A program made the position numbers and the translations under genes. Below, one piece after another: positions 4,706 through 23,843 of a stretch of DNA of 24,490 nucleotides. The stretch spans positions 1 through 24,490 of the forward strand of contig NZ_JAEDAM010000097.1 of NCBI RefSeq assembly GCF_018420025.1, given 5' to 3'. The DNA is from Candidatus Vampirococcus lugosii. GTDB lineage: Bacteria > Patescibacteriota > Gracilibacteria > Absconditabacterales > Absconditicoccaceae. Position 1 is the first letter of the stretch. Each line of letters opens with the position of its first letter. The notes under the pieces are model-generated. The model was not told the DNA's origin and made no database searches. It worked only from the letters and a program-made list of their open reading frames with translations.

Positions 4706-4963
4706 ACAATTTTAAATTTTTAATTTATATAAAAAACATAATCATATATAATATATTAAATTTTTAAAAAAATTCAAGTAATTTTAAATTAATTTGTAAA
4801 ACTTAAAATATATATCACATATTATAAATAATCTCCAAAATATAAAGTTTCATATTATAATAACAATTTAACATTATTTAGAAAAAACAAATTAAATATT
4901 GTTTTTAAAATATTTTTAATTATATAAAATATATTATTTAATAAATAATTTTGATAAAAAATA

Positions 4964-5161
4964 ATGAAAAAAATTGATTTTATTATTTTTGTATGACTAA
5001 TAATATGATTTATATTGATAAATATTTATCAAATAGATCTTTCTGATAAAAATTTTTTTCTAAGTAGTATTATTGCAAATGAAATTTGGCAATTTATTAT
5101 ATTTTGAATTGCTATATTTTTGATGGGTAAGAAATTAATAGATTTAGAATATCAAAATTAA
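4964..5161 (+). CDS. Small hypothetical membrane protein (65 aa, two predicted TM helices)
   Basis: ATG 4964..4966 to TAA 5159..5161 with three in-frame TGA=Gly. Translation: MKKIDFIIFVGLIIGFILINIYQ...IWQFIIFGIAIFLMGKK. No recognisable family. Confidence 0.45.
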
Positions 5162-5295
5162 AAATTATATTTTAAGTATTAAATTATATTTAATATATAA
5201 ATAATAAATTTACTTGATTTTGAAATATAAATAAATATAAAAAAATAACTAAATTAATTAGTTGAAAATTTTTTATTTTATTTTATTTCATTTTT

Positions 5296-6216
5296 ATGAA
5301 AATAGCTTTTGTTGGTAAATGATGAAGTGGAAAAAGTACTATATCAAGTTTATTTACAAAATATCTTTTGGACCAAAATCTAGCAGTATTATGATTTGAT
5401 GCCGATATAAATGTCAATTATTTACAAAATATAAAAATTAATGCAAAAGAATATTTAGCTATATCAAAATCTAATAATTCTGAAAAAATAAAAAGTTTTT
5501 TGATTGGAAATAATAAAAAAATTGAATCAATAAATCATTTTATCAAAACCACTCCTCCTTGACAATGATCTAAATATTTGGAATATGACAAAAATAATTT
5601 TATTATACAAAATTTTTGACAAAAATTATGATCATGATATTTCTTTTATGTAGGAAAATATGAAAGTAATTGAATTTGAACTAGTTGTTATCATAATAAT
5701 TTATCTATATTTGAAAATATACTTTCTCATACCAAACTTAAAGAAAATGAATATTTAGTATCTGATATGTCTGCTGGTACTGATGCTTTTTCAAATACTT
5801 TACATGCACAATTTAATAAAATAATTCTTATAGTAAATCCAAGTCAAGAATCTATAAAAGTTGCAAAAGATTTTTTACAATTATGAAAAGATGCAAAAAC
5901 GGAAAAAAATATTTATTTAGCAATAAATAATTATGAAGATCAATATGAAATTGATTTCATAGAAAAAAATTTATGAAAAAAAGTTGATATATATTTTGAA
6001 AAAAATAAAATAATAAAACAAAAATCTTTATTTTGACAAGAGATTAGTTTACAAGACACAAATTATACTAAAAGTTTTGATAAATTATTAAAAATAAATA
6101 ATTGATATGATGATAAATGTATAATAGAAAATTTAAAATTATTACATAAAAAATATTCACAATTGTGATACATAATAAGAAGAATTTGAGATGTTTCTTT
6201 ACAAGCAAAAGATTAA
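5296..6216 (+). CDS. SIMIBI-class P-loop NTPase, CooC/MinD/ParA-like
   Basis: ATG 5296..5298 to TAA 6214..6216, 921 nt. Deviant Walker A MKIAFVGK-GG-SGKST, where the GG are two consecutive TGA codons (5320..5325). CooC-like central motif GIGTSCYHNN. Walker B-like region YLVSDMSAGTDAFSNT...IILIVNPSQESIKVAKDF. Confidence 0.75.
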
Positions 6217-6222
6217 TAAAAT

Positions 6223-7629
6223 ATGAAAAATGTTTTTAAGTGACCTGATTCAATAAAAAATTATTTAAATCCAAACAATCATATAACTCCCCTTCTACAA
6301 CTACCTGCAAATTTAAATAAATATGAGAATGAATGAATTCATATATATGCAAAATTATTACAAAATCTACCTTTGTATAATGTAAAATCAATTCCTGCCT
6401 ACAATATGATATCTGAAAAAAATGAAAATAACAAAACAATAGTAGAAAGTTCATCATGAAATACTGCATATTCTTTATGTATACTTTGAAAAGTATTTTG
6501 ATATAATTCTATGATAAGTTATGCATCTGAAGAAGTTTGAGAATGAAAATTAGATATACTTAGATTTTTTGGCTCACAAGTTGTAATAAATCAAGAACCA
6601 ATTTGTCCAAATCCAAATGATGAAAATAGTTCAATAAATATAGCAAAAAATTTATGAAAATCAAAAAAGTATATAAATTTTGGGCAATATGAAAATCAAA
6701 AAAATCCTGAATGACATTATAATTATACTTGACCACAAATATATGAACAAATGGAATGAAATATTGATTTTTATTGCTCTTCATTATGAACAACTTGAAC
6801 TTTTATAGGTACAAGTAAATATTTGAAAGAAAAGAATCCAGAAATAAAATCAATATGAGTAGTTAGGAAACCAAATAATCCAATACCTGGACCTAGAACA
6901 GAAAACTTACTTAATCAAATAGCATTTGATCGAAAATCACAATTAGACTACTTACAAAGTGTATGAACCAAAAGAGCATATATACAAAGTCTTAATTTAT
7001 CAAGAAATTGAATAATTGCTTGACCAAGTTCTGGAATGATTTTGGAATGAGTTTTTCAATTTATAAAAGAAAATTATGAAAAAATACAAGAATTAAAAAC
7101 AAAAAAATGAGAAATAAATATAGTTTTTATATGTTGTGATTTACCTTTTTTGTATATTAAAGATTATTTTAAATATTTGGATCAAGAACTTTTTCCAGAA
7201 ATTAAAAATAAACATTTGATAAAATCTATAAATACTAATAATTTTGATATTAATATAGAAATTGAAGTTGATACATTTTTTAAAAAATTTTTTTATGAAG
7301 AAAAAAATAAAATTTGGGAAGCAATAAAAAATGATAAAGAAATATCTACCAGACAAAATATATTGCTAATAGATATAAGAGAAAAAAAATATTATCAACA
7401 TTTTTATATACCAAATAGCAAAAATATTCAAATAAATGATTTGGAAAAATATATAGAAAGTGATAAAAATAAAGAAATATATTTAATATGTGAATATGGC
7501 TGACATTCAAACGAAATTGCTATTAAATTAAAAAATAGATGATATAATTGTTTTAGTATCAAATGATGAACTATTGAATGGTCAAAATTAAATTTACCTA
7601 GAATTAAAAATGAAATATGTAATTTTTAA
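6223..7629 (+). CDS. Cysteine-synthase-like PLP-dependent (fold type II) enzyme fused to a C-terminal rhodanese domain
   Basis: ATG 6223..6225 (6 nt after the upstream stop) to TAA 7627..7629, 1407 nt. CysK/CysM-type motifs: ..LYNVKSIPAYNMI.. (candidate PLP lysine), VESSSGNTAYSL, AGPSSGMILEG. C-terminal rhodanese: LLIDIREKKYYQHFYIPNSKNI and active-site loop CEYGGHS (7489..7509). The supplied ORF 7150..7503(+) is an in-frame fragment. Confidence 0.8.
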
Positions 7630-7727: not shown

Positions 7728-7985
7728 TTAATAAATAATTGAGGACAAAATCAGAATAATAATACCAATTATAACTGGAATTAACAGTAAAAGAAAATAT
7801 TTAAATTTTTCTTCCAACTTTATATTAAATTTTTTCAAAAGTGGATCTAAATGTTTATCTATAGTTGCTTTTACTTTTTTTCTATTTGGATATTCATAAT
7901 CTATAAATTCCAAAATCGCAATTATAAAAATAACTAAAGAGAAAAGAGCATTTAAATTAGTTAAAATAAGATATAAAGTAGCCAT
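7728..7985 (-). CDS. Small hypothetical membrane protein (85 aa)
   Basis: Intact standard-code ORF with no TGA. Hydrophobic N- and C-terminal helices flank a charged loop (YEYPNRKKVKATIDKHLDPLLKK). No family recognised. Confidence 0.5.
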   Translation of the reverse strand: MATLYLILTNLNALFSLVIFIIAILEFIDYEYPNRKKVKATIDKHLDPLLKKFNIKLEEKFKYFLLLLIPVIIGIIILILSSIIY

Positions 7986-15107: not shown

Positions 15108-15965
15108 TTAACGAGTAAATTTAGTAGAATTAGTTTGTCTTCAATCTCATTGCAAAAATTCTAAATTTTCTTTTAATCATTCTTTTATATCTGATATTAA
15201 ACAAGAGTCCAAAGCATTATCTTGACAAAGTCAATATGCAACTTGAACTTTACTTTCCATTCATCAAGTTCATGAACTAGAACTTCAATCACAATTTTGT
15301 AATAAATTTTCCAAAGATATATTTTCTATATTTATCTGTGGAATAGGACAAAAATATCAATCTATTGATATACAAAAAGCCGTATTTGTATATATTATTC
15401 AATATATTTTTTCATAATCTCACAAAATTGAAAGTAATTCTACAATATATGCAAATAATCTATCATTATCTTGCAAAACTGCTAGTGCTTCCAACTCAAG
15501 TTTATCAACAGCATCATTAAAATTAATAATAGGTGTTATATTATTTTTCAATAAATCATTCAATAAGTTAAATGTATTTTGATCTTGTTTTTGTTTTATA
15601 AATTTATCATGAAAATCCTCTATAAGTTTTTGAAATCTAGTATATCAAATATTTGAAAAATCAATATTTGAATTATAACTTACCAAAACTTGTCATATCA
15701 TAGGTCCCAAAACTTGTTTCCAAAAATCCATAAGTTTCATCTGTCCAACACTTGCTGATAATTGTGAAGATATATTTTCTCACAAAATTGATTTTCACAT
15801 TTTTACAGCTCAAGAAGAGATTATAACAAAATCCATTTTTTCATCAAAATCCGATATTGCATCTCATATTTGTTTTCTAAAATAAGAAATAGATTCTTCA
15901 TAAGTCATACTATTTGAAACTATTGAATCTGATCAAAATTTTAACACACATAAATTTTTGTTCAT
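15108..15965 (-). CDS. proB: Glutamate 5-kinase-like amino-acid kinase (no PUA domain)
   Basis: ATG at complement 15963..15965, TAA at complement 15108..15110, 858 nt. Motifs: [71 protein letters not shown]. Together these match the ProB/amino-acid-kinase pattern. Confidence 0.72.
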
Positions 15966-22652: not shown

Positions 22653-23843
22653 ATGGTAGATTCAGATATTAAAATATTTTCTGACAATATATGAAGTATA
22701 AATCCAAAACATCCTGCTTTTAATTTATTAGAAATGGAAATATGGGAACTAATTGAAAAATTTTTAAGAACAAAAAAATCTATAAGAACTCAACAAAGTT
22801 ATTTTACAGATTTAAAATTTTTTTTTGAAAAATATGAAATATATGATTGTAAAAAACTTCTTAATTATTATTCCAATTATGAACTTAGTGATATGATAAA
22901 TGATTATATAAATTCTAGCAAAAAAGTTGATCCACAAGATCCTAATAGAATATATAATCCAAGAACTGTAAACAGAAAAGCATATTCACTTTCTTCATTT
23001 TTTAAATTTTTACAAAAAAGATATAAATTAAACTATAATCCTGTAATGTTTGATGCACTCAATACACCCAAATATTCAAGCACTAACAGTATAAATAATG
23101 AAGAATTAAAAAATATATTAAATTTTCTCAAACAAAAATATGAAAATGAAAATAATAAAATAAAGAATTTAAGAAATTATTTAATATTTTGTTTTTTTTC
23201 TTTCTCTTTAAGAAGAAATGAAGTAAGTAAATTGAGATGGCAAGATATAAATAAATCTGAAAAATATATACAAGTATTACAAAAATGAAATACAACAAAA
23301 TTAATTCCTATACCATCAAATGTTTATGAATTATTATTAGAATTTCAAACATTAAAAGCTAGTTTATGATATATATGAGATTATATTTTCACACCATTCA
23401 ATAATAATAAAACTAAAACAATAAATAAACCTATAAGTCCAGATTATTTATATAATTTGGTTATTAAATTATGGAATGAATTTGAAACAAATACTCAAAT
23501 TCAAAATATATATCAAAAAATTAATAAATTACAAAACAAGAAAAAATATTTAAATAAAAAATTAAAATTAAACAAAAATATAGAAATTGAAGAAAAAATA
23601 AATAATATAAATTATGAGATAAATAATCTAAAAAATATGAAAAAAGAAATATTAAAAAATAATAAACAAATTTCATGTCATAGTTTTAGAAAAACATTTG
23701 TAGAACAAGCGATACTTAGATGAGATGATTTCGTGCAAATACAAAATGCTACAGGTCATACTAATCCAAATATGATTAATTATTATCAAACTATAAATAA
23801 AACTAAACATAATTCTATAAATAATTTAGATAATTTTTATTAA
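22653..23843 (+). CDS. Tyrosine site-specific recombinase (phage-integrase/Xer family)
   Basis: ATG 22653..22655 (alternative ATG 22734) to TAA 23841..23843, 1191 nt with in-frame TGA=Gly. N-terminal SAM-like domain (SIRTQQSYFTDLKFFFEKY, KAYSLSSFFKFL). Catalytic motifs LRRNEVSKLRWQDI (Arg I), SCHSFRKTFVEQAILRG (HxxR), IQNATGHTNPNMINYY (His plus Tyr nucleophile). It joins supplied ORFs 22734..23288 and 23457..23723. Confidence 0.85.

Follow-up and report, generated by a model that had tools for sequence, protein, structure and literature searches.

Candidatus Vampirococcus lugosii (Patescibacteriota, Absconditabacterales) carries two adjacent genes, referred to here as gene 1 and gene 2, which encode a CooC-like ATPase and a pyridoxal 5'-phosphate (PLP)-dependent enzyme fused to a rhodanese domain, respectively. 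The genes lie on contig NZ_JAEDAM010000097.1 of assembly GCF_018420025.1, and the window is the whole stretch of that contig that was analyzed (positions 1 to 24,490; 24,490 nucleotides). Comparison with related loci suggests that the gene pair would be the core of a mobile zinc-starvation module which is widespread in Patescibacteria and DPANN archaea. The source stretch has a GC content of 21% and reads with TGA as glycine (genetic code table 25, Absconditabacteria), there being 16 in-frame TGA codons in gene 1 and 23 in gene 2. Both open reading frames are broken under table 11, which was therefore rejected, and both are restored under table 25.

The two-gene module described in the original prediction was confirmed as two open reading frames on the plus strand with 6 nt between them (Table 1), a spacing that suggests co-transcription. 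A scan for promoters and terminators gave a signal at chance level. The nearest named homologues of both proteins are those of Ca. Absconditicoccus praedator (68% and 74% identity), and an NCBIfam profile search with genes 1 and 2 returned no family above its cut-off.

Identity of the two proteins

Pfam identifies CbiA in gene 1 (E 1e-7) and both PALP (residues 20-284, E 1e-37) and Rhodanese (residues 375-455, E 5e-13) in gene 2, in agreement with the predicted domain content. CooC1 is the top PDB sequence match of gene 1 (3KJE, E 1e-8) and the first match in Foldseek (4e-11), where MinD is second, so that CooC1 is ahead of MinD and ParA by both sequence and fold. Gene 1 possesses the deviant Walker A sequence and the CooC-like Cys/His motif quoted in the original prediction. 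The motif, Cys131-Tyr-His133, aligns with the Cys-x-Cys of CooC1, whose cysteines we take to be metal ligands, and by analogy it may form a metal site at the dimer interface. His284, located in a C-terminal extension that CooC1 lacks, is invariant among the 120 homologues. Membership in the true CooC family, which acts in maturation of carbon monoxide dehydrogenase (CODH), was rejected from the occurrence of Cys-x-His in 120/120 homologues and the lack of a CODH-family gene: there was no Prismane-family match that could represent a CODH client in the Ca. V. lugosii genome, which uses code 25 and is 92% complete, and no CODH genes were found among the recurring neighbors of the related gene clusters, referred to here as cassettes. 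Membership among the ParA/MinD proteins was also rejected, the scores being 17-20 bits versus cut-offs of 180-213.

The best PDB matches of gene 2 are 8H4Q and 8H4H (E 1e-70), which are structures of the fungal aspergillomarasmine A (AMA) synthase, followed by the next entry at 1e-24 and CysM at 1e-22. AMA synthase is also the top Foldseek match of the gene 2 structure model (5e-40; mean predicted local distance difference test score of the model, 92), and structure comparison gives a Z score of 45 to AMA synthase versus 36.5 to Mycobacterium tuberculosis CysM. AMA synthase, reported by Guo et al. 2020 according to the citation in PMC8319579, adds O-phosphoserine units to aspartate, and its product chelates Zn, Co and Ni (PMC8319579). 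Fda4 of Fusarium poae is likewise a PLP enzyme with a rhodanese-like domain and joins O-phosphoserine to alanine (PMC12751119). The architecture, for which the author of the original prediction knew of no characterized system, is therefore not without precedent, as the combination of a PLP enzyme with a rhodanese has been characterized in fungi. The description of gene 2 as a CysK/CysM-type enzyme holds in part. The PLP lysine, the SSGN loop and the GPSSG sequence are all present, but the scores of 123, 131 and 100 bits are far below the cut-offs for cysKM (344), CysM (413) and CysK (351). SbnA membership was rejected as well (99 bits versus the TIGR03945 cut-off of 350), and no ornithine-cyclodeaminase that might serve as an SbnB partner occurs among the recurring neighbor clusters. 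Since gene 2 falls below every CysK, CysM and SbnA cut-off, the CysK/CysM designation applies only at the level of the fold.

Homologues of gene 2 that resemble the window copy are designated type I, and distant PLP-rhodanese proteins, which usually follow a LysA-like decarboxylase, are designated type II. The rhodanese catalytic loop is intact, as predicted, with Cys423 at the first position of a six-residue active-site loop. This cysteine is present in 99/99 full-length prokaryotic rows, is replaced by Asp in some fungal homologues and, like the PLP lysine, is invariant in the prokaryotic fused forms. Residues 339-342, which link the PLP domain to the rhodanese, are modeled with low confidence. 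The acceptor pocket differs from that of AMA synthase because position 104 is Glu in gene 2 and Lys in AMA synthase. Arg225 occupies the CysM-type position which presumably accommodates a phosphate or thiosulfate group, and Cys466 is a candidate resolving cysteine or metal ligand.

Table 1. Positions of the gene pair and of its principal residues and domains in the window
Feature	Position	Strand	Remarks
Gene 1, CooC-like SIMIBI ATPase	5296..6216	+	306 aa, table 25; Cys-x-His subfamily with conserved C-terminal helical extension
Deviant Walker A	5314..5337	+	Signature Lys8 and Lys13 invariant in 120/120 homologues
Cys131-Tyr-His133	5686..5694	+	Aligns with Cys-x-Cys of CooC1; C131 and H133 in 120/120
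Gene 2, fold-type-II PLP beta-replacement enzyme fused to rhodanese	6223..7629	+	468 aa; AMA-synthase family, type I
Lys55, PLP Schiff-base lysine	6385..6387	+	Invariant in type I, type II and unfused forms
Glu104	6532..6534	+	Lys in AMA synthase; E/Q/D in type I; mostly K in type II
Cys128, active-site entrance loop	6604..6606	+	Rhodanese-fused prokaryotic-type forms only
Arg225	6895..6897	+	Invariant; common to AMA synthase
Rhodanese domain	7345..7587	+	Catalytic-position Cys423, TGT codon at 7489-7491
Cys466, C-terminal tail	7618..7620	+	Conserved in type I only, 55/57 type I rows

Distribution of the pair and its zinc-type setting

The pairing of the two genes is conserved in related genomes. 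Among loci fetched with gene 2, the ATPase gene is found within 2 kb upstream in 29/30 informative type I loci versus 0/33 loci of unfused homologues (here and below, locus counts include near-duplicates). In an even sample of 401 genomes of the phylum, the ATPase is present in 21 (about 5%) and the fused enzyme in nine, and all nine fused enzymes are within about 3 kb of an ATPase gene; three unfused copies of the enzyme occur in genomes that lack the ATPase. When all ATPase loci are considered, the gene that follows the ATPase encodes a type I enzyme (70 loci), a LysA-like decarboxylase (30), a serine kinase (three) or another protein (about 14), and 13 loci have no downstream gene. The decarboxylase is usually followed in turn by a type II PLP-rhodanese. 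In the four closest relatives, the pair resides in four different neighborhoods, one of them between insertion sequence fragments, and the pair thus behaves as a mobile unit.

A Fur-family gene is present in 69/133 ATPase loci, and other recurring neighbors are genes for COG0523/CobW GTPases, ZnuABC, ZIP and YibE/F, as well as NikR-like regulators in archaeal-type contigs. A de novo search for palindromes in 39 non-redundant upstream regions identified the 17-bp sequence WTGCAACTnAGTTGCAW, with a score of 11.6 versus 5.5-5.7 for shuffled sequences. This is the same palindrome as the predicted ZUR site of the Desulfovibrio znuABC-zur operons (PMC545781). In held-out loci, the palindrome was found upstream of 33/89 ATPase genes versus 3/709 other genes. 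From these data it is highly probable that the cassette belongs to a zinc (Zur-type) regulon, the match of the motif and the nature of the neighboring genes both pointing to zinc as the signal. When zinc is plentiful, the module would be silenced in most carriers through binding of a Zur-type repressor to the palindrome. No report of gene 1 or gene 2 as Zur targets was found in the literature.

The copy of the pair in Ca. V. lugosii departs from this arrangement. The region upstream of the pair (4706..5295) contains no Zur-type operator (best score 0.6 bits versus a threshold of 11 bits), all five operator-like sequences with one mismatch that the window contains are inside coding regions, and no Fur gene was found in the genome, which does possess a ZIP transporter gene. 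The closest genome that is complete (G414) has no Fur gene either, whereas in another member of the family (G422) Fur, two boxes, the gene pair and a gene for COG0523 follow one another directly. The simplest reading is accordingly that regulation was lost in this sub-lineage, and Zur-type control has apparently been lost in the lineage of the source copy. With neither repressor nor operator found in its genome, the Ca. V. lugosii pair is probably expressed constitutively. The Absconditabacterial ATPases also have Asn in place of the otherwise conserved Glu181 and Lys212 (5/120 rows), which is a lineage-specific change accompanying loss of the regulator.

The ATPase subfamily is also present in Actinomycetota and also adjoins SCO5389-like proteins. 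At ten loci (L165, L166, L168, L170, L171, L090, L091, L160, L174 and L177) a member of this ATPase family, frequently with the same operator, is followed by a partner other than gene 2. These partners are SCO5389-like or related proteins with a C-terminal Cys, divergent proteins resembling short-chain dehydrogenases/reductases (SDR), and Cys-rich unknowns of about 230-280 aa. Conversely, Nocardia (L074, L078 and L080) carries a type II cassette without the ATPase in a culturable host, which includes a desulfurase-like gene (clear in L080), a gene for a 435-aa protein with a C-terminal HMA domain, the decarboxylase gene and the PLP-rhodanese gene.

A putative sulfur relay and competing readings

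Three results favor protein-borne sulfur. One is the distribution of Cys128 in the active-site entrance loop, which occurs in 75/75 non-redundant enzymes whose prokaryotic-type rhodanese is complete, a set that spans type I as well as the distant type II, compared with 0/35 unfused homologues and 0/4 fungal AMA-type proteins. The unfused forms fall into at least two separate clades. This minimum number is all that can be read from the tree, which came from a quick search, leaves its deep forks open and clusters one row wrongly (L079, 402 aa); no order of events follows from it. Another is that 13/32 decarboxylase-containing loci, some of which lack the ATPase, encode a cysteine desulfurase. 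The recruited enzymes are of the SufS-like and the IscS-like kind, and the catalytic Cys is present where it could be located. The third is that type I enzymes have the additional tail Cys466 and that the rhodanese is attached through a linker modeled with low confidence. A SerK-like serine kinase occurs in 10 loci (match to 5X0B, E 1e-21), which points to O-phosphoserine as the substrate; SerK feeds cysteine synthesis in Thermococcus (PMC5120207). The SerK-like proteins of L082 (3938-4309) and nine other loci have 116-146 aa and lack the insertion domain that is found in the serine kinase of Thermococcus (242 aa), making the short protein a candidate minimal free serine kinase.

Based on these patterns in the sequences, we tentatively propose that the cassette is a zinc-starvation module with a persulfide-fed, cysteine-type zinc ligand, a reading that approaches but does not reach the point of being probable. 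Given membership in the zinc regulon, the sulfur-relay chemistry by itself is about evenly poised. Gene 2 would convert an activated serine, of which O-phosphoserine is the most likely, to a PLP-aminoacrylate, and Ca. V. lugosii would have to take this serine from its host or obtain it through an unrecognized enzyme. Rhodanese Cys423 would be charged as a persulfide by a cysteine desulfurase or by thiosulfate, the desulfurase in Ca. V. lugosii probably being the housekeeping SufS. The rhodanese domain would then swing in on its linker and pass the sulfur via loop Cys128 to the aminoacrylate, with Cys466 or a thiol resolving the mixed disulfide, to give cysteine or a cysteine-derived thiol or thioether that could be used as a zinc ligand. 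Gene 1 would act as a dimer driven by ATP, binding zinc at the Cys-x-His site and loading, unloading or handing on the metal, which by analogy with CooC1 may make it an ATP-gated zinc chaperone. A fuller version of the proposal is doubtful. It holds that ultra-small symbionts have an undescribed route of zinc acquisition, in which a self-contained persulfide relay formed by the rhodanese, loop and tail cysteines on an AMA-synthase scaffold leads to a sulfur zincophore or to stripping of zinc from host thiolate proteins, that the Cys-x-His ATPase receives the metal, and that the fungal AMA synthase is derived and has lost the relay.

Several observations weigh against a persulfide-fed zinc ligand. 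AMA synthase and Fda4, which are the nearest characterized relatives, catalyze C-N bond formation, and a Cys is likewise retained in the rhodanese loop of AMA synthase. Desulfurases are confined to the decarboxylase-containing cassettes, with 0/75 type I loci having one, so their support for the type I enzyme is indirect. Searches of the 92%-complete Ca. V. lugosii genome (code 25) found no SerC, CysE, SerK or DUF1015. If the product were simply cysteine, its synthesis from cysteine-derived sulfur would bring no net gain, and the cysteines of gene 2 could be metal ligands rather than sulfur carriers. Regarding the zinc regulon, family models gave no type for the Fur proteins of the cassettes, their alignment is not diagnostic, and PMC545781 likewise gives its Zur box as a predicted site.

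One alternative retains the zinc module but has gene 2 act like AMA synthase or Fda4, adding the nitrogen of an amino acid or amine to an O-phosphoserine-derived aminoacrylate to make an aminopolycarboxylate zincophore, with the cysteines serving in regulation or in handing metal to the ATPase. AMA synthase is the top match of gene 2 in sequence and structure by a wide margin, the chelation of Zn, Ni and Co by AMA (PMC8319579) fits Zur control, SerK and the LysA-like decarboxylase recall the SbnI/SbnA/SbnH set of staphyloferrin B, and type II enzymes, as does AMA synthase, mostly keep Lys104. The acceptor-side residues of type I (Glu104, Glu125, Cys128, Ser136-Ser137 and Arg215), however, are unlike those of AMA synthase, and no conserved exporter or chelate importer is among the recurring neighbors in the cassettes. 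As this alternative also leaves unexplained both the desulfurases and the loss of Cys128 together with the rhodanese domain, we consider it unlikely, though it deserves serious attention. It is improbable that gene 2 has a zinc site built from its three cysteines, or that it carries out an elimination (cysteine to persulfide or H2S) which loosens zinc from thiolate proteins, with the ATPase capturing or loading the metal and no small chelator being made. Such a role would suit the other genes directly downstream of the ATPase, which encode small Cys-rich proteins including SCO5389-like ones with a C-terminal Cys, and the consideration that cysteine would be available from the host while no source of activated serine was found in the Ca. 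V. lugosii genome. The SerK and decarboxylase of related cassettes nevertheless point to a biosynthetic, serine-consuming route, and the rhodanese loop has normal sulfurtransferase spacing.

A compact route for cysteine supply or Fe-S assembly unrelated to zinc seems slightly more improbable still. The conserved rhodanese Cys, the CysM-type Arg225, the neighboring desulfurases and the Thermococcus precedent for SerK would fit such a route, but the operator and neighbors are of the zinc type, no gene for an Fe-S scaffold, carrier or sulfate uptake recurs in the cassettes, and the ATPase is found in so few of the sampled Patescibacteria. In addition, the genome already has SufS and two genes of the SufB/D family; MnmA is present as well. 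The general sulfur-mobilization or Fe-S assembly route envisaged there is thus disfavored by the zinc regulon and the existing SUF genes, and the failure to find CysE, SerC, SerK or DUF1015 in the 92%-complete genome makes plain cysteine supply doubtful. The channelling of sulfane sulfur that was predicted gains support from the co-varying loop Cys128 and the recruited desulfurases, with the product still inferred. It is very improbable that gene 1 is a ParA/MinD positioning ATPase which is next to gene 2 by chance. Its MinD and ParA profile scores are weak (E about 1e-3 to 1e-4) and MinD is its second Foldseek match, but CooC1 comes first by sequence and fold, Cys-x-His is invariant, and in the closest relatives the two genes stay together despite four different genomic settings.

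Homologues of gene 2 also occur in unexpected settings. The yeast Ascoidea rubescens (L198:8001-9644) has a gene of the prokaryotic type I kind with the loop, rhodanese and tail Cys, which is outside the fungal AMA-type clade and has eukaryotic neighbors, a possible separate horizontal transfer. In Obscuribacterales (L058, L061, L065, L067 and L069), fusions of about 900 aa combine an unannotated N-terminal region with the PLP domain and are followed by a LysA-like decarboxylase, an SDR, a Cys/Met PLP enzyme and a flavin adenine dinucleotide (FAD) oxidase. Unfused homologues of about 346 aa are found in arsenic operons of marine Alpha- and Gammaproteobacteria (L031-L034, L036, L038, L039 and L042-L044), each of which holds several of arsR, aquaglyceroporin, class I/II aminotransferase, arsD and arsA genes; these homologues may belong to an undescribed detoxification route by arsenite beta-replacement (arsonoalanine-type).

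Elsewhere in the window, a 65-aa open reading frame at 4964-5161 has no homologue near any relative's copy of the pair. An 85-aa membrane-type open reading frame at 7728-7985 has a second copy with 93% identity on another contig (C67) of the genome; a homologue was found neither in the fetched loci nor near relatives' copies of the pair. The module as defined here includes neither of these two reading frames. A divergent gene of the amino-acid-kinase family, ProB-like by appearance, lies between pheT and leuS at 15108-15965, which is unexpected in a reduced genome. The contig has a tyrosine integrase gene near its right end (22653-23843), and its left end (1-591) contains what appears to be a fragment of a transposase gene.

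Comparison with known systems

Patescibacteria and DPANN archaea are assumed to draw nearly everything from their hosts, and their acquisition of metals is largely unstudied. Each part of the cassette has a known fold and its nearest enzyme is characterized, while the cassette itself is uncharacterized; literature searches turned up no description of the cassette, of the Cys-x-His ATPase subfamily or of a cysteine relay of this kind. If the proposal is true, a conserved zinc-regulated biosynthetic module would mean that some ultra-small symbionts make their own metal-handling chemistry. In addition, the CooC-like ATPase subfamily, which is widespread, would receive its first function, the phylum would gain a defined Zur-type operator, and the fungal AMA synthases would fall inside a prokaryotic family. 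With two soluble proteins, three cysteines and one defined operator, the module offers a direct test.

Gene 1 resembles CooC1, its best match in sequence and structure, in having a deviant Walker A sequence and a metal motif at the equal position. It differs in that the motif is Cys-x-His instead of Cys-x-Cys, in about 50 additional C-terminal residues that include His284, and in the zinc-type gene context of its family. The Zur regulons that include COG0523, ZnuABC and metallophore clusters (reviewed in PMC6103462) have a counterpart in relatives of the pair, which carry a Fur-family gene and similar accessory genes as well as a palindrome identical to the Desulfovibrio site (PMC545781); the Ca. 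V. lugosii copy differs in having neither box nor regulator.

Gene 2 shares with AMA synthase and Fda4 the combination of PLP fold type II with a C-terminal rhodanese-like domain, at about 30% identity over the full length, and it has in common with AMA synthase the PLP lysine, a QY motif, Arg225 and the C-terminal CCD motif of the PLP domain. At the positions of Glu104, Glu125, Cys128, Ser136-Ser137 and Arg215 of gene 2, 8H4Q has Lys, Gly, Gln, Arg-Gly and Thr, respectively, so that the AMA-synthase pocket (Lys, a Gly-rich loop and Arg at gene 2 positions 104, 123-129 and 136, respectively) is not matched. By analogy with SbnA, these acceptor-side residues presumably bind aspartate in AMA synthase. 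The gene 2 family further differs from AMA synthase in its loop Cys128, tail Cys466 and invariant rhodanese Cys, and in being paired with an ATPase and, in relatives, with a Zur-type operator. The extended cassettes are similar to the front end of staphyloferrin B biosynthesis (the serine kinase SbnI, SbnA and the decarboxylase SbnH) in combining a serine kinase with a beta-replacement enzyme and a LysA-like decarboxylase. Unlike that pathway, no SbnB, IucA/IucC-type synthetase or exporter recurs in the cassettes, which add a rhodanese, a desulfurase and an ATPase, and Ca. V. lugosii has just the two core genes.

The CysM enzymes of Escherichia coli (2BHS) and M. tuberculosis (3DKI/3DWG) have the same fold as gene 2 (Z about 35-36.5, root-mean-square deviation 2.3-2.5 Å) but are only 24-26% identical to it, and gene 2 reaches 131 bits versus the family cut-off of 413. 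In chemistry, the M. tuberculosis O-phosphoserine sulfhydrylase CysM provides a parallel for the proposed relay, as it combines an O-phosphoserine substrate with a protein-borne sulfur carrier. The carrier of CysM is the thiocarboxylate of CysO, whereas the putative carrier of gene 2 is the persulfide of its own fused rhodanese.

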